DNA of 64,000 nt from assembly GCF_044324875.1 (NCBI RefSeq), contig NZ_CP172185.1. One strand, 5' to 3'. The translations under genes were made by a program, and so were the position numbers. This document shows positions 1 through 49,870 of this stretch, piece after piece; position 1 is the first letter of the stretch; each line of letters begins with the position of its first letter. The notes under the pieces were generated by a model. The model was not told where the DNA came from and ran no database searches. It saw only the letters and a list, made by a program, of their open reading frames with translations. The stretch comes from Escherichia coli. Lineage in GTDB: Bacteria > Pseudomonadota > Gammaproteobacteria > Enterobacterales > Enterobacteriaceae.

Positions 1-1221
1 AGTAACCCGAGCGTTATGTTGTTAAGCGCCGCCGTGCTCGGTTTACTCGGCCTGGTGCCTGGAATGCCGAACCTGGTATTTTTGCTGTTCACTGCCGGAT
101 TGCTTGGGCTGGCCTGGTGGATCCGCGGACGCGAACAAAAAGCGCCTGCCGAACCAAAACCGGTAAAAATGGCAGAGAATAATGCCGTTGTCGAAGCGAC
201 GTGGAACGATGTACAACTGGAAGATTCTCTGGGAATGGAAGTGGGTTATCGCCTGATCCCGATGGTCGATTTCCAGCAGGATGGTGAGTTGCTGGGCCGT
301 ATACGCAGTATTCGCAAGAAATTTGCCCAGGAGATGGGGTTTCTGCCGCCAGTGGTGCACATTCGCGACAATATGGATCTGCAACCTGCCCGCTATCGCA
401 TTTTGATGAAAGGCGTGGAGATAGGCAGTGGTGATGCTTATCCGGGGCGTTGGTTGGCGATTAACCCTGGTACCGCTGCCGGGACGTTACCTGGTGAGGC
501 GACCGTCGATCCGGCATTTGGCCTGAATGCTATCTGGATTGAAAGTGCGCTTAAAGAACAGGCGCAGATTCAGGGGTACACCGTGGTTGAGGCCAGCACG
601 GTGGTGGCAACGCATCTTAACCACCTCATTAGCCAGCATGCCGCAGAGCTGTTTGGTCGTCAGGAGGCGCAACAGTTGCTGGATCGCGTCGCCCAGGAGA
701 TGCCAAAGCTGACGGAAGATCTCGTTCCTGGCGTCGTCACGCTCACCACACTGCATAAAGTGCTGCAAAATCTGCTCGATGAAAAAGTGCCGATTCGCGA
801 TATGCGCACTATTCTCGAAACGCTGGCGGAACATGCGCCCATCCAAAGCGATCCACATGAATTAACCGCCGTCGTGCGCGTGGCGTTGGGACGGGCGATT
901 ACCCAGCAGTGGTTTCCTGGCAAAGATGAAGTTCATGTTATTGGCCTCGATACACCGCTGGAACGTTTGTTGCTACAGGCGTTGCAGGGCGGGGGCGGAC
1001 TGGAGCCAGGGCTGGCGGATCGTTTACTGGCGCAAACTCAGGAAGCGCTATCCCGTCAGGAGATGTTGGGTGCGCCGCCAGTTTTATTGGTGAACCACGC
1101 GCTGCGACCATTATTGTCTCGCTTCCTGCGCCGCAGCTTGCCGCAGTTAGTGGTGCTGTCGAATCTGGAACTATCTGATAACCGACATATCCGCATGACG
1201 GCGACAATTGGCGGTAAATGA
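1..1221 (+). CDS. flhA: Flagellar export apparatus protein FlhA, C-terminal part (5' end lies outside the window)
   Basis: ORF 16..1221 is open in frame back to position 1; translation matches the FlhA C-terminal cytoplasmic domain as I remember it; followed by flhE with a 4-nt ATGA overlap. Confidence 0.9.
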   Translation, partial: SNPSVMLLSAAVLGLLGLVPGMPNLVFLLFTAGLLGLAWWIRGREQKAPAEPKPVKMAENNAVVEATWNDVQLEDSLGMEVGYRLIPMVDFQQDGELLGRIRSIRKKFAQEMGFLPPVVHIRDNMDLQPARYRILMKGVEIGSGDAYPGRWLAINPGTAAGTLPGEATVDPAFGLNAIWIESALKEQAQIQGYTVVEASTVVATHLNHLISQHAAELFGRQEAQQLLDRVAQEMPKLTEDLVPGVVTLTTLHKVLQNLLDEKVPIRDMRTILETLAEHAPIQSDPHELTAVVRVALGRAITQQWFPGKDEVHVIGLDTPLERLLLQALQGGGGLEPGLADRLLAQTQEALSRQEMLGAPPVLLVNHALRPLLSRFLRRSLPQLVVLSNLELSDNRHIRMTATIGGK

Positions 1222-5021: not shown

Positions 5022-5275
5022 TCCCCGAGAAGTATAAAAAACGAACGATTTCGGTGATCAGTTGAGCGCGTGACAGTGCGCATAGCGTTGTGCTAAAAAT
5101 TTTTATACATTCATATTAATTATGTAATTTAAATTACTAAAACTGACAAATATATATTCTAAATAACAACTGGGTTATTCTTTAGCAATTAATGATTACA
5201 TTGTAATAAATCATATTCTTGGTGATGCTGCCAACTTACTGATTTAGTGTATGATGGTGTTTTTGAGGTGCTCCA

Positions 5276-5551
5276 GTGGCTTCTGTTTCTATCAGCTGTC
5301 CCTCCTGTTCAGCTACTGACGGGGTGGTGCGTAACGGCAAAAGCACCGCCGGACATCAGCGCTATCTCTGCTCTCACTGCCGTAAAACATGGCAACTGCA
5401 GTTCACTTACACCGCTTCTCAACCCGGTACGCACCAGAAAATCATTGATATGGCCATGAATGGCGTTGGATGCCGGGCAACTGCCCGCATTATGGGCGTT
5501 GGCCTCAACACGATTTTACGTCACTTAAAAAACTCAGGCCGCAGTCGGTAA
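5276..5551 (+). CDS. insA: IS1 InsA
   Basis: 91-aa [46 protein letters not shown]... identical in character to IS1 InsA (zinc-finger N-terminus). Confidence 0.9.
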
Positions 5552-5973
5552 CCTCGCGCATACAGCCGGGCAGTGACGTCATCGTCTGCGCGGAAATGGA
5601 CGAACAGTGGGGCTATGTCGGGGCTAAATCGCGCCAGCGCTGGCTGTTTTACGCGTATGACAGGCTCCGGAAGACGGTTGTTGCGCACGTATTCGGTGAA
5701 CGCACTATGGCGACGCTGGGGCGTCTTATGAGCCTGCTGTCACCCTTTGACGTGGTGATATGGATGACGGATGGCTGGCCACTGTATGAATCCCGCCTGA
5801 AGGGAAAGCTGCACGTAATCAGCAAGCGATATACGCAGCGAATTGAGCGGCATAACCTGAATCTGAGGCAGCACCTGGCACGGCTGGGACGGAAGTCGCT
5901 GTCGTTCTCAAAATCGGTGGAGCTGCATGACAAAGTCATCGGGCATTATCTGAACATAAAACACTATCAATAA
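5470..5973 (+). CDS. insB: IS1 InsB reading frame (expressed as InsAB' transposase by -1 frameshift)
   Basis: 167-aa ORF in the -1 frame overlapping the insA 3' end; matches IS1 InsB as I remember it. Confidence 0.85.
5525..5533 (+). other. IS1 programmed -1 ribosomal frameshift motif TTAAAAAAC
   Basis: A6C slippery motif sits in the insA/insB overlap, where the IS1 frameshift is known to occur. Confidence 0.7.
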
Positions 5974-6103
5974 GTTGGAGTCATTACCCATATTCTTTAT
6001 CGATTATTTCAGGCAGTGTTGTGCCGAATTATGCAAGCGGTCAATTCGTTGTATATTTAATTATACAATGATTTCGGTGTTCTGGAATTAATTAGAGGAA
6101 TCT

Positions 6104-9822: not shown

Positions 9823-11970
<2,148 letters not shown>

Positions 11971-35188: not shown

Positions 35189-35351
35189 TTCCGCTCTCAG
35201 GATAGCCTGAAGTTGACTATTTCGGGCTATCCAGAACCGCACAGCCATTTGAACAGGCTGATTTTCTCTGTCTGCATAACATTCGATATCCGCGCCATTA
35301 CCTGTCATCATGTGACTGCTCCCCGCCCTGTCGGGCAAGGCTTCCCACTTC

Positions 35352-36521
35352 TTAAGCCGCAACCGTCTGTGCTACGGATTTATGCTGGCCTCCATGGGCA
35401 GAAACGACGAGTCCCGCCGCTTGTAATTCCAGTATGCCCTTGCGTTTGATGTTGAGCGCCGCGTTGATATCGCGGTCATGTTCAACTCCACACTCTGGAC
35501 ACTGCCAGATGCGCTTATGTAATGGCATCTCCGACATTTTGTGACCGCAGCAGTGGCAGGTTTTCGAACTGGCGAACCATTGATCCAGTTTCACCAGATG
35601 CACACCTTTCTCTGTTGCTTTGTATTCCAGTTTTGTGATGAATCCAGACCATCCAGCATCGCCTATCGCACGAGCCAGATGGTGATTTTTCATCATATTT
35701 GCCGTTTTCAATGTCTCGACAATTACCGCTTGGTTTTCGTCAACAATTGCGCGAGATAACTTGTGCTGGAAATCGGCACGGGCACTGGCTACCCGTTCGT
35801 GAACGGCTGCAAGTTGTATTCTGGCTTTGCGCCTGTTTGCGTTCCCTTTTTTCTTACGGGACAGTGCTTTCTGCTTCCGGCGAAGGTTGCGACTTGCATT
35901 GATTAGGTGGCGGGGACTGGCAATTTTATTGCCGTCCGATTTGATGACAAAATGCGCCAGCCCCATATCCAGCCCTGTCACATTTGATATCAGTGCAGGC
36001 TTTGCCGGCGCTTCCATCCCGTCGTCACAAAGTAACGACGCGTAGTATTTCCCGGTTGCGCTGCGGCTCAACGTGATACTTTTCAGCATTCCCGTAATTT
36101 CACGATGTAAACGCGCTTCAATCGGCAAGATTTTCGGTATTTTTATCGCACCATCAAGGACTTTTATGCCAACACAATGATAGCTCGATTGTCTGCCGTG
36201 TTTACTTTTAAAGGTAGGTTTACCTGCTTTCAGTTTCGGATTGAAAAAGTTAGAAAAAGCCACGTCGAGGTTAATTACCGCCTGCTGCAACGCAATAGAA
36301 TCATATTCTTTAAGCCATCCATACCGGCGGGATTTCTTCGCCACTGCAAGCAGTGGTTTGAGGTCTTTACGCGGGTTTAAATTTACGCGGTGCCGCTGGT
36401 AAGAATGTTTCTTGATATGCAGAGCTTTGTTGTACGCAAAACGCACTGCACCGAACTGGGCGTTGATAAATTCAGCCTGTTCTGGTGTCGGGTAGATGCG
36501 TACTTTTGTTGCTCTTAACAT
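35352..36521 (-). CDS. tnpB: TnpB (OrfB_IS605) RuvC-like putative RNA-guided nuclease
   Basis: 389-aa ORF; RuvC-like motifs TGLDMGLAHF, AVIVETLK and EHDRDINAALNI plus zinc finger CHCCGHK...CPECG; architecture typical of IS605/IS607 TnpB. Confidence 0.85.
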   Translation of the reverse strand: MLRATKVRIYPTPEQAEFINAQFGAVRFAYNKALHIKKHSYQRHRVNLNPRKDLKPLLAVAKKSRRYGWLKEYDSIALQQAVINLDVAFSNFFNPKLKAGKPTFKSKHGRQSSYHCVGIKVLDGAIKIPKILPIEARLHREITGMLKSITLSRSATGKYYASLLCDDGMEAPAKPALISNVTGLDMGLAHFVIKSDGNKIASPRHLINASRNLRRKQKALSRKKKGNANRRKARIQLAAVHERVASARADFQHKLSRAIVDENQAVIVETLKTANMMKNHHLARAIGDAGWSGFITKLEYKATEKGVHLVKLDQWFASSKTCHCCGHKMSEMPLHKRIWQCPECGVEHDRDINAALNIKRKGILELQAAGLVVSAHGGQHKSVAQTVAA

Positions 36522-36577
36522 AATCAGCGCTCATTGATATAATGCTTTTATTTTAACACTTTAGGTAAATATATCAA

Positions 36578-37003
36578 TTGAGTAATCATGATGATTTACT
36601 GGCGGGATTTCTCCGCAAACGACACAGTGTCAGTAAGCTGGTTGTGCACCTTATTTTTACGACAAAGTATCGACGCAAACTATTCGACAGTCAGATGATC
36701 GCTCAGTTGCGTGAGGCTTTTGGCTCCGCTGCGGCAAAGCTTGAATGCGAAATTATTGAGATGGACGGGGAGCCAGACCATGTACACCTGCTGGTTGCCT
36801 ACCCGCCAAAACTGGCGGTCAGTGTGATGGTCAATAATTTAAAATCGGTATCATCACGTTTGCTACGCCAGCAGAACGCGCATTTACGTATGCAGAGTAA
36901 AACGGGGCTTTTGTGGTCGAGATCGTACTTTGTCTGTAGCACCGGAGAGGCAACGATTGAAACGCTCAGAGCCTACGTTCAGAGTCAGTCAACACCTGAT
37001 TGA
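36578..37003 (+). CDS. tnpA: IS200/IS605-family Y1 (HuH) transposase TnpA
   Basis: 141-aa ORF with HuH motif HVHLLV and C-terminal Tyr region SRSYFVCSTGEATIE; ORF-track first codon is TTG and no in-frame ATG precedes the conserved N-terminus. Confidence 0.75.
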   Translation: MSNHDDLLAGFLRKRHSVSKLVVHLIFTTKYRRKLFDSQMIAQLREAFGSAAAKLECEIIEMDGEPDHVHLLVAYPPKLAVSVMVNNLKSVSSRLLRQQNAHLRMQSKTGLLWSRSYFVCSTGEATIETLRAYVQSQSTPD

Positions 37004-45855: not shown

Positions 45856-48489
45856 TTATTTGGGAAGCGCAGTACCCCATTCACGCCACTCTTTCGGTTC
45901 ACTTTCCTGCAACAGGAAGTGCTTGCCTTCCTGGGCTTTCGGTGCCAGTGGCGTACCTGGAGGCGTGGCGAAGGCGATGCCGCCACGGATAAACTGGTTA
46001 AAGGTGCCGGTTTTCACGACGCCGCCCGTCAGACCAAAGTCCAGACTGTAACCCGATGCCAACCAGAAGACGGAATTGTTACGCACCAGGTGTTGATAGC
46101 GTTTACTGATGCGCATCGCAATCATCACGCGATCTGACAATGTCCCCAGCGTCATTCCGGTAACCGTACCGACTTCCAGACCACGGAACAGCACAGGCGT
46201 ACCGATGCCTAACGAACCGGCTTCCGGCGCTTCAACAATAATGCTTAAGCCATCCAGGTAACGCGAATCAGTTATGGTGGCCTCTTGTAATTCAAAGTCG
46301 CGGCGAGGATTGCCCCGGCCTGGTTCGACGTTGATATACGGCTGGAGGATAGTATCAAGATGCTCAACGCCAGCTGCCGAAATTTGCGGTGTGACCACTG
46401 AGAAGCGTGTACCACCGCGTGCAAAGGTCTGGACATATTCCGGGTAAAGTACCGCCTTTGCCTGTACTTCATTGCGCGCGGTAATCAGATCCAGCGTCTG
46501 GATTTGCCCGATATCAATACCGAGATAGCGAATTGGCATCCCGACCGCCAGTTTTCCGGCATCGAAAGCGTGAAGCGTAATTTGCCCTCCAACCGCACGG
46601 GCCGCTGTTTCGGAAGCATACAGAATACGCTTGTCGCCTTTACGCTGACTGGCGCTGGCACCGCTGAGGTTATCGAAGCTAATAGCCCCCTTTAATGCTC
46701 TGGAGAGCGGAGATGCCTGTACGGTTAGGCCGCTGCCATTCAGCTGAACTTTCGCCCCACCTTCTGCCCAGAACACGCTGTTGCTGGTCAGAAGGTTGCG
46801 ATACTCCGGCTTAATATGCAGATCGATATCAAACGCGTTAGCTCGCGGACGCACAGTAATAACTTCACCAACTTCAAATTTACGGTACAGCACTACCGAT
46901 CCTGCCTGCACATCCGGCAGCGTCTCTGCACTCAAACTCACGGTTGTGGTGGGTAAATCGCTAAGGCTGTTCTCCAGCGCTTTTTCCAGATTGGCATACA
47001 GTGGATAGCTGGCTTTCATCTCGCCTTTATCGCCTGGCAGAATACGTATCCCGCCGTTAATCCATTCTGAGGCGCTGGCACCGAGAAACTCAACGCCATC
47101 CAGCCCCACCTTCACGTCGACACGGCTGTTGACGACAAATTTGCTATCGCCTTTTACCAGTTCGCGATGCTGAGGCTCGATGGCGACGGTAAAGGTGACG
47201 CCTTTGCTGGTGAGTTTACGATCAATAACCTGGCCTACCTGCACGCCGTGAAGAATGAGCGGCTGACCAGCATCAATGCCGTAACTTTCCGGCGCGGTCA
47301 GGGTCAGCGTCAGAACATCCGGCTCATGGAGCAGGGCTTTTTCACCTGGCACAACAATAAACTCTTTACGTGGCTCGCCATCGCCGGGCACCAACTCAAA
47401 GGTTTTTCCGGTCAGCAGGGCACTGAGATTGGCATCGCTAAGGGATAATTTCGGGTTGCGTAATTCGATGCGGGTATTTTCACGAAGCAGGGTGACGACG
47501 CTGGGATCAACGGTCATTTCCCCAGTGACTTTACCACCAGGATTTAAATCCAGTTTAGTCAGCTGTCCGACTTCCAGCCCCTGATACATTAACGGCGTCG
47601 AGTCGGCGGTTAATCCGGCCCCACTCGGCAGTTCCAGTTTTATTATTACGCCACGCTGGCTGTGGGCGAGATCTTCATACAGACCAAAGGTATCTTCCGC
47701 CTCGGCAGGTTTCGACTCTTCAGGTGAATCGAAGGCAATCGCACCGTTAACCAGTGCCGCCAGACTTTCCAGTTTCACCTTCGCGCCACTGATACTGACG
47801 TTGGCATCAACGCCAGAAACGTTCCAGAAACGGCTACCTTTTTTCACCAGGTCGGTAAAACGCCGCTCGATCAGGACATCAATCACCACGCCTTGCTTGT
47901 TGGGATTGATGGCATAGTCGTAGACTTTTCCGACCGGGATCTTGCGGAAATAGACCAATGAACCGCTGTTCAGCGAACCGAGATCGGGGGCTTGCAGGTG
48001 GATCATCAGATCGCCGTTATCCAGCCGATACTTCGGTTGGGTATCGAGTGCGACAAAGTGATCCTGCTCCTTACCTTTACCTGGCATCATGCCGATATAG
48101 TTACCACCGACGAGGGCGTCCAGTCCGGAGACACCTGCCAACGAGGCCTTTGGCGTCACCAGCCAGAACTGTGTCTCTTCGCGCAGCGCATCTTTCATAT
48201 CGGACTTGATGCTGACCTTGACTTCAATCTTACGAAGATCGTCGCTCAGGCTGATATCCTGCACAGTTCCGACTTCAACGCCCTGATAACGAACAGGGGT
48301 GCGGCCCGGGACAATGCCATCCGCCGACATAAAGTCGATGGTGACGGTATTACCCCGGTCCTGATAACTATCCCAAATCAGCCAACCGGCAATCATTAGC
48401 GCGATGAACGGCAGCAGCCAGAAAGGTGAGATACGGCGTTTATTTTTAATCTGCGCTTCAGTCGTCGAAGCGGGCGTTTCCTGACTCAT
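45856..48489 (-). CDS. letB: Lipophilic envelope-spanning tunnel protein LetB (YebT), multi-MCE-domain protein
   Basis: ORF 45856..48531; start at [28 protein letters not shown] (877 aa); repeated MCE-like segments. Confidence 0.9.
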
Positions 48490-49741
48490 GTGCATCCCAA
48501 AGTAAGCGGCTGTCCAGCCATTCCACAGCAAGAATAGTCAAAATTACCGCTGCGCCGAAATAAAACGCAGCCGGTCCCATAGTAAAAGCGAGGATCTGAT
48601 CGCGATTAATCAGCGACATGGTTAAAGATATGACAAACAGGTCGAGCATCGACCAGCGACCAATCCAGGTCACCATCCGCAGTAACAGAATGCGTGTGCG
48701 TAAACCTTGCTGGCATTTAAAATGAATACTCAACAGTAAAGTGAACATGACGATCACTTTAGTAAACGGTACCAGAATACTGGCGATAAACACGATTCCC
48801 GCAACGGCAATGTTGCTACTTGCCAGCGACATAATTCCGGAAAGAATTGTATCTTCCTGCCGGCCACCATTCAGATAAATGATAGAAATAGGCAACAGGT
48901 TGGCAGGTAACAATAAAACGATTGACGCTAACAGCGCCGCCCAGCATTTTTGCAGACTATGACGGCGACGCAGGCGTAGCGGGATATGGCAACGCGGGCA
49001 GCGACCACGCTGATCAGGATAGCCGGTAAAATGGCACCCAAGACAGACACGGAGTTTCTCGTCTCTACGCGTAGCGGGGCGCTGTGGATAAAATCGCTCC
49101 CACAGTTCTTCGACATTGAGATGTGACAACGTCACCGTCGTTAAAATCACTAACGCCACAAAAGAGAACAAGCCGACACCCGCCTGGATATGGGCATAAT
49201 CCTGTACCTTTATAGAAGCAACGCCAATGCCGACCAGGTAGATATCGAGCATTACCCACTCTTTCAGTCGCTCAAGCATCAGCAATACCGGACGTAAATT
49301 CATTCCCAGTCGGTTACCAAACCATAAATAAGCTATGGAGGTCACCAGAATGAGGGGGGCACCAATAACGCAAAAAAAGACCATTGATCCCGTTATCGCA
49401 TCGCCCTGTTTGGTCATTTGCCAGATGCCTTGCATGACGTTGGCGTCAATACGAATGCCTAACAGCCAGATATGCAACAGCGGTTCGCCCCAGGCAAACG
49501 GCATAAGCAACAGCATAGCGAACGCCATTGCCGCCAGGCGCGTCAGCGACCAGTCGCGCCCGTCACGAATTTTTGCCTGACAGCGCGGACAATAGGCACT
49601 TTGATGAGAATTTATCTCAGGCAGGCTAAACAGCATGTCACATTGCGGGCAACGTTGGTAATCACCACGCGGCAGTTCCTCGCCCATTGCCCTCACTGTT
49701 ATCTTTTTTGTCGGCGTAATTTGTGGTGTGTTAAGAGCCAT
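48458..49741 (-). CDS. letA: LetA (YebS), PqiA-like inner membrane protein
   Basis: 427-aa ORF with two CxxC zinc-ribbon-like pairs; overlaps the letB start by 32 nt. Confidence 0.9.
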
Positions 49742-49870
49742 GACGTGCCAAATGTAATAAGAATTAACATTAATCTTAACCCATGATGGGAATGATCTTG
49801 AGCATTAACGCATTTAATGCTTATTTTAATAGGCTGGCAGTTCCAGGTAAGACAACCAAGTGATTATATA

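Follow-up and report, generated by a model that had tools for sequence, protein, structure and literature searches.

Our analysis of a 64,000-nt stretch of Escherichia coli DNA (the window) has shown that letB starts 32 nt inside the 3′ end of letA (48458-48489, minus strand). A first-pass annotation, made from the sequence alone, had given exactly this geometry, and both RefSeq and K-12 agree with it. Chance does not account for the overlap. We consider it likely that letA/letB and a second pair in the window, flhA/flhE, are genuine conserved overlaps in known operons, that the letB start is anchored in a coding motif of letA, and that the flhA/flhE junction is a 1-nt overlap at position 1221. 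The 32-nt overlap itself is already known, both from the reference annotation and from a 2026 paper on the structure of LetAB, in which the two genes are said to “overlap by 32 bp” (PMC13017536). The flhA/flhE stop/start overlap is likewise annotated in every RefSeq record examined. The overlaps had been described as expected biology, and they are indeed ordinary and already known. Their discovery value is small, as the central facts are all annotated or published. The anchoring of the letB start in the LetA motif DSRLLWD and a frozen synonymous block of about 90 nt around it are modest additions, possibly useful for engineering the operon.

The identity of the genes was established by several approaches. 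A 1-kb query around the letA/letB junction matched, at 95-99% identity, 5,424 of the 5,426 complete genomes of E. coli, where the genes are annotated as yebS/yebT, the current letA/letB. On the minus strand, letA (yebS; 48458-49741) encodes a 427-aa protein of the PqiA family and ends in a TGA at 48460-48458. This assignment comes from translation, RefSeq and Pfam, where PF04403 matched LetA in two stretches (E=1e-81). The letB gene (yebT; 45856-48489, minus strand) starts at an ATG whose A is position 48489 and encodes an 877-aa protein with seven MCE (MlaD) domains, as judged from translation, RefSeq and seven stretches matching PF02470. The pair has the organization of a letAB MCE lipid-transport operon, in which a PqiA-family double-module membrane protein lies directly 5′ of a protein with six to eight MCE domains. 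Its surroundings are syntenic with those in E. coli K-12, with msrC/proQ/prc on one side and rsmF on the other. On the plus strand, the 3′ part of flhA (1-1221, stop TGA at 1219-1221; FHIPEP family, PF00771) is followed by flhE (1221-1613; 130 aa), which begins at a conserved ATG at 1221 and was assigned from RefSeq, from junctions compared across genera and from a match to PF06366. This order, a FHIPEP-family FlhA and then FlhE, a Sec-secreted periplasmic protein, is that of the flhBAE operon.

The letA/letB overlap and the letB start codon

The shared 32 nt encode LetA (H418)E419-D427 plus the stop codon and, in a frame offset by one base, LetB residues 1-11. The letB frame is open from 48531, and the A of the annotated ATG is at 48489. 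The same geometry is found in the RefSeq annotation of a 99.3%-identical genome and in K-12 MG1655, and no difference between the window and MG1655 was seen over positions -45..+45 of the junction. K-12 letAB (PMC13017536) thus has the same junction over this interval, the same 32-nt overlap and the same proteins, although outside the junction the strain of the window is 1-5% divergent from most E. coli. Conservation was examined in 80 orthologous letA/letB loci from the Enterobacteriaceae, one per species. The two genes are an overlapping co-directional pair in 80/80 species, and the letB ATG at 48489 was kept in every one. The overlap measures 32 nt in 76 species and 44 nt in the other four, where the letA TGA has been lost and the frame continues for 12 nt to a TAA.

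Two in-frame ATGs stand in tandem at this junction (ATGCACATG). The second lies two codons 5′ of the annotated start, at 48495 (48493-48495, minus strand), and its use would give a 38-nt overlap. This codon is missing in about 23 of the 80 species, mostly through GAT>GAC, which is synonymous in letA, or through A417T, and an in-frame TTG at 48531 is missing in three. Calculation of duplex energies pointed to a weak Shine-Dalgarno (SD)-like element, UGGGAU (48494-48499, minus strand; -4.0 kcal/mol), which lies 4 nt from the letB ATG and consists of the codons for Trp-Asp in a conserved LetA motif, DSRLLWD. Among the candidate letB starts, ATG 48489 is the only one with such an element at usable spacing. 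In the 52 nt 5′ of this ATG, variant types read in the letA frame are 12 synonymous vs 6 nonsynonymous; read in the letB frame, 14 are nonsynonymous (radical) vs 4, and one lineage carries an in-frame stop. Conservation, the frame-specific pattern of substitutions and SD spacing all spoke against the two upstream candidates, ATG 48495 and TTG 48531, which were rejected. Further downstream, no start codon was found between ATG 48489 and the conserved SPFWLLP transmembrane segment of LetB. Since the letB ATG is invariant and no later start precedes the transmembrane segment, the overlap is unavoidable and 48489 is the right start for letB.

A search of representatives yielded five distant orthologues with LetA identities of 51-37%, four of them syntenic (proQ-prc and/or rsmF) and the fifth on a short contig. 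In three of these (L093, L094 and L097), the letB ATG lies two codons after the LetA motif DSRL(L/I)W(D/K), as it does in the Enterobacteriaceae. The Trp-Asp/Lys codons of the motif supply UGGGAU in L093 and L097, at the same spacing, and UGGAA in L094. Beyond the motif, the LetA tail of the three runs for 2 to 18 codons, giving overlaps of 11, 38 and 56 nt; of the two remaining loci, one has an 8-nt overlap and one has none. Both protein tails at the overlap differ in the distant orthologues. The overlapped letA codons of E. coli encode residues 419-427, which are the same residues that lack cryo-EM density, and LetB residues 1-13 were left out of simulations as absent and low-confidence (PMC13017536). 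Inside the overlap, letB is the better conserved frame; in the letA frame, 12 variant types are nonsynonymous, among them Ala>Pro (20 sequences) and stop>Gly (four), and 3 are synonymous. With the position of the letB ATG fixed and the length of the LetA tail variable, the overlap length would have drifted as a side effect of a LetA tail that is dispensable.

Based on these comparisons, we propose that the ribosome-binding region of letB sits within the codons of the last conserved LetA motif, DSRLLWD, with the ATG 4 nt further on. The disordered LetA tail would then be read, in the other frame, across the first 11 codons of LetB, which would specify a disordered cytoplasmic N-terminus. The length of this tail would set the overlap, at 32 nt in the Enterobacteriaceae and 11-56 nt elsewhere. 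The paralogous pqiABC genes of E. coli resemble letAB in gene order, with the gene for a PqiA-family membrane protein preceding that for an MCE protein, and are related in function. In contrast to letA and letB, pqiA and pqiB do not overlap but are separated by a 4-nt gap, while pqiB and pqiC overlap by 4 nt. The long overlap is therefore peculiar to the letAB lineage and not a family-wide trait.

The conserved block around the letB start

In the alignments, synonymous change is strongly suppressed over a block of about 90 nt around the letB start (48454-48541, minus strand; -52..+36 relative to the ATG). Third-position entropy in the conserved letA codons of 77 species averaged 1.14 bits and fell to 0.12 bits at -19..+28, the lowest windows in the gene. 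This roughly 10-fold suppression sets in 50-70 nt 5′ of the letB ATG, where the DNA encodes letA only, and it also takes in letB codons 11-12, past the letA stop. Because both tails are disordered and unlike in distant taxa, the nucleotide conservation points to an RNA-level constraint. We infer that the block represents the translation initiation region of letB, lying within letA. The predicted cost of opening the native -18..+13 region is 9.4 kcal/mol vs 12.4-12.9 kcal/mol for synonymous letA recodings, and the native letB site is more open than 92.5-96% of such recodings; it is also more open than 92% of mRNA positions. The gain in accessibility is modest, in that 4-7.5% of recodings are equally open. 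The block is most simply read as the outcome of selection that keeps an internal initiation region accessible. Synonymous changes at the 3′ end of letA may shift LetB levels, which matters when the operon is recoded, mutated or subjected to deep mutational scanning.

The block could also be a separate cis-regulatory RNA element within letA (for example a target of an sRNA or of an RNA chaperone such as ProQ or Hfq, a translational enhancer or a standby site) that tunes the LetB:LetA ratio. The extent of the suppression fits such an element, covering as it does about 50 nt that encode letA alone as well as letB codons 11-12, and with both tails disordered and unconserved in distant orthologues, protein constraint does not explain the conservation of the nucleotides. 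However, no Rfam family matched the junction at E<=1, neither folding nor covariation was significant there, and no promoter-like (sigma-70-like) site for letB was found at the junction. Terminator-like hairpins numbered five vs 2.1 +/- 1.8 expected, which is not significant. Moreover, the block may be sufficiently explained by what an internal ribosome-binding site ordinarily requires, together with dual coding and the conserved codons for DSRLLWD. We regard a separate element of this kind as unlikely, and equally doubt that 48454-48541 is a dedicated control element which sets a several-fold excess of LetB from one mRNA, perhaps with an sRNA or with ProQ, which is encoded nearby. Such an excess would match the 6:1 composition of the LetAB complex.

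Overlap and translational coupling

Both overlaps had been taken in the first-pass annotation to indicate tightly coupled co-expression. Co-expression from one mRNA is a sound conclusion for both pairs, which are co-directional overlapping genes in known operons. Tight coupling, however, does not follow from the overlaps alone and, as the main mechanism at letAB, is doubtful. The LetAB complex consists of six LetB and one LetA (PMC13017536), and at this 6:1 stoichiometry an overlap should not be taken to mean 1:1 coupling. Given that each LetA requires six LetB, we infer that LetB would be made mainly by direct ribosome binding at the open, conserved initiation region; ribosomes finishing letA would possibly help. 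The stoichiometry of a complex need not equal the ratio of synthesis, and a weak SD-like element such as that of letB is typical of coupled downstream genes. In one proteome table, YebT was quantified from seven peptides and there was no row for YebS at the adjacent locus. As multi-pass membrane proteins are hard to detect, this lends weak support to an excess of LetB over LetA. No entries for initiation or synthesis values of letA, letB or flhE were found in the supplements of TRAINSPOTTER, Mori et al. 2021 and Burkhardt et al. 2017.

Termination-reinitiation would offer a different route to LetB. A ribosome would end letA at 48460-48458, back up about 30 nt and restart at the letB ATG, a mechanism known from the coat-lysis pair of phage fr, and LetB output would be tied to LetA output. 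The presence of an overlap together with a weak SD is in keeping with this mechanism, as are precedents at -34/-38 and -50 nt, where the start nearest to the stop is used (PMC12548453, PMC10666635), and subunits of heteromeric complexes are over-represented among overlapping pairs. However, reinitiation cannot yield more LetB than LetA, and the complex is 6:1. The short overlaps that make up the termination-reinitiation class are of the -4 (NTGA) and -1 (TGATG/TAATG) types (PMC6728339, PMC10666635, PMC12548453), and letA/letB (-32) falls outside this class, as its stop lies 29 nt downstream of the letB ATG. More than 80% of overlaps are shorter than 30 bp, with -4 and -1 nt dominating and longer ones rare (PMC12548453, PMC10666635), and the efficiency of reinitiation is reported to drop steeply with stop-start distance (PMC10666635). 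Nor is this distance conserved, since the stop lies 12 nt further on in four species and the stop-start distance varies between 8 and 56 nt in distant orthologues. A plasmid refactored to carry non-overlapping letA and letB ORFs is functional and served as the wild-type background for deep mutational scanning (PMC13017536). The overlap is thus dispensable under plasmid expression; native levels are a separate matter. We think it improbable that reinitiation accounts for LetB synthesis, while ribosomes that terminate at letA may contribute alongside direct initiation.

The coat-lysis junctions of phages fr and MS2 are similar to letA/letB in that the downstream start lies tens of nucleotides before the upstream stop (-34/-38 in fr, -50 in MS2) and a weak ribosome-binding site sits inside the upstream coding sequence. 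In contrast, output of the phage lysis gene is a small fraction of that of coat, whereas LetB is needed six-fold over LetA. In addition, letB has no evident inhibitory structure, unlike the unfolding type of coat-lysis junction. Under RNA unfolding, the letB site would be locked in structure and freed only during translation of the 3′ end of letA. Three small hairpins could form near the start (-82..-60, -31..-18 and +18..+36), with 95.5% of cells paired across 71 distinct sequences (81 sequences tested). Helix 1 contains one covarying pair, helix 2 is invariant across the alignment, and the freezing of synonymous sites for about 50 nt upstream of the letB start would also be compatible with a structural role. 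The third is a candidate 7-bp hairpin, CGCUUCG-N5-UGAAGCG (48454-48472, minus strand), with 98.6% of cells paired and the letA stop in its 3′ arm. Most of the variable sites fall in its loop, and the changes seen in the hairpin are one-sided, with no compensatory ones.

Other results argue against unfolding. No stable fold was found at the junction, where the single sequence folded no better than its shuffles (z = -1.34 over 130 nt and +1.31 over the local 81 nt), and with RNAalifold the covariation term was -0.16 and compensatory pairs numbered 0. In helix 1, one pair is disrupted in 21 of the 71 sequences and another in 17. Both the SD and the letB ATG lie outside all three hairpins, and the SD/start region is easier to open than in most recodings (92.5-96%). 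At letB, a stable and conserved sequestering structure of the MS2 coat-lysis type was not seen, and we consider control of LetB by unfolding to be quite unlikely.

The flhA/flhE junction

At the flhA/flhE junction the window reads ATGATGA, with two tandem ATGs (AAATGATGAGA in full). The ATGA string described in the first-pass annotation is present at 1218-1221, but its placement of the flhE start at 1218 did not hold, as the conserved and annotated start is 1221. In each of the seven E. coli RefSeq records examined, including that of K-12, flhE begins at 1221 and encodes 130 aa, with a 1-nt overlap. The window and three other E. coli strains share the junction AAATGATG. K-12, one ST131 strain and two other E. 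coli strains have AAATAATG and no ATG at the position equivalent to 1218. Salmonella and Citrobacter share the AAATAATG junction, also with no ATG at that position (longer reading GGAGGnAAATAATG), and the junction in Enterobacter is AACTGATG (longer reading GGAGGGAACTGATG). The extra in-frame ATG (1218-1220, plus strand) is created by a TAA>TGA variant of the flhA stop and occurs in 4/8 E. coli, the window counted, and in 0/3 other genera. A weak SD-like element, GGCGG (1210-1214, plus strand), lies upstream of both ATGs, 6 nt from 1221 and 3 nt from 1218; its equivalent is GGAGG in Salmonella, Citrobacter and Enterobacter.

From the sequences compared, the conserved flhA/flhE junction is T(A/G)ATG with a 1-nt overlap. 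The 4-nt ATGA overlap at 1218-1221 is lineage-specific and incidental, as ATG 1218 occurs only where the flhA stop is TGA. A conserved start at 1218 was rejected because the codon is absent in half of the E. coli compared and in the other genera, and a flhE start placed there is probably one codon too early; the start is corrected here to 1221. The flhA/flhE pair belongs to the termination-reinitiation class (-4/-1) as a textbook -1 junction (TGATG at 1219-1223 in the window, TAATG in K-12 and Salmonella), while the -4 reading rests on the non-conserved ATG. The real junction would be a 1-nt stop/start overlap, the second most common coupling-type arrangement. The overlaps had further been held to confirm the chosen start codons. 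The choice for letB is backed by phylogeny and that for flhE is contradicted. As proof of a start codon, an overlap fails where in-frame ATGs stand in tandem, as they do at both junctions (ATGCACATG; ATGATG), and overlap motifs are unusable for confirming starts in such cases.

FlhE is Sec-secreted (PMC13344023), and its N-terminus is signal-like; from these two observations, the signal peptide is presumably cleaved. The mature N-terminus would therefore be the same for either start, and N-terminal proteomics cannot resolve the two at flhE.

Initiation of letB at ATG 48495 or TTG 48531 and of flhE at ATG 1218, at least where these codons are present, is very unlikely: all three are in frame in the window, some gene callers output FlhE with an MM start (P0009, 62 member sequences) and ATG 1218 forms a legitimate ATGA motif in TGA-type strains, but the two letB codons are lost in about 23/80 and 3/80 species and lack an SD at usable spacing, a letB-frame stop occurs in one lineage, and ATG 1218 does not occur in K-12, ST131, Salmonella, Citrobacter or Enterobacter and lies just 3 nt from the SD-like GGCGG. 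Strains that carry an extra ATG may show minor dual initiation there, and low-level use of ATG 1218 is possible in TGA-type strains.

Overlaps of the short kind also occur elsewhere in the region. Counted from the annotation of its first 50 kb, 5/32 co-directional neighbour pairs overlap, by 1 nt once, by 4 nt three times (cmoA/cmoB, yecD/yecE and znuC/znuB) and by 32 nt once, with letAB as the sole long overlap.

Start codons of letA and letB

At the letA start codon (49741, minus strand), a Shine-Dalgarno match was undetectable in the region 49742-49763, where the best pairing reached -1.5 kcal/mol. The start region is open, with an opening energy of 7.5 kcal/mol. These features of the letA start would be consistent with LetA output that is low relative to that of LetB. 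An A417T variant of LetA (GCA>ACA) was found at two of the compared loci, L004 from E. coli SCPM-O-B-8794 (5247-5249) and L024 from Salmonella arizonae. This variant abolishes the in-frame ATG located upstream of letB at 48495, and it leaves the annotated letB start (48489) untouched.

Within letA, 60-82 nt 5′ of the letB start, lies a candidate hairpin of the form GCUGCG-N11-CGCAGC (window 48549-48571, minus strand). When the hairpin was checked against an alignment of 71 distinct sequences, one base pair was seen to truly covary between species (UA, AU, CG, GU and UG), and two other pairs were disrupted in approximately one quarter of the sequences.

The flhA stop codon and other overlaps

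The flhA stop codon (window 1219-1221) is polymorphic in E. coli, being TGA in the window and three sampled strains and TAA in K-12, ST131 and two other E. coli. It is the TGA allele that creates a spurious additional in-frame ATG for flhE. Ordinary 4-nt co-directional overlaps occur at three junctions of the same region, cmoA/cmoB, yecD/yecE and znuC/znuB (9884-9887, 11931-11934 and 19915-19918 in L098, the corresponding region of the related strain WP4-S18; about +777 to +907 is added to obtain window coordinates). The convergent genes ptrB and exoX have 4 nt of their 3′ ends in common (L098 38312-38315).

Insertions and gene content

In the window, argS directly follows flhE (1613-1666), and yecT and yecV are missing. 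K-12, like many other E. coli, has both genes between flhE and argS; presence or absence of this ~730-bp segment varies by lineage.

An IS1 copy (window 5221-5988, plus strand) sits between cutC and torY. Positions 5221-5243 match the IS1 terminal repeat exactly, and two ORFs of the InsA/InsB type span 5276-5551 and 5470-5973. The otherwise near-identical WP4-S18 is without this copy, and the 777-nt coordinate offset between window and WP4-S18 is the sum of the element's 768 bp and a target duplication of 9 bp.

Between yebE and ptrB, WP4-S18 carries an IS200/IS605-type ISEc46 tnpA and a TnpB/InsQ RNA-guided endonuclease gene (L098 34447-36098). Since the L098/window offset is constant, the window is suggested to have both genes as well, probably at ~35350-37000.
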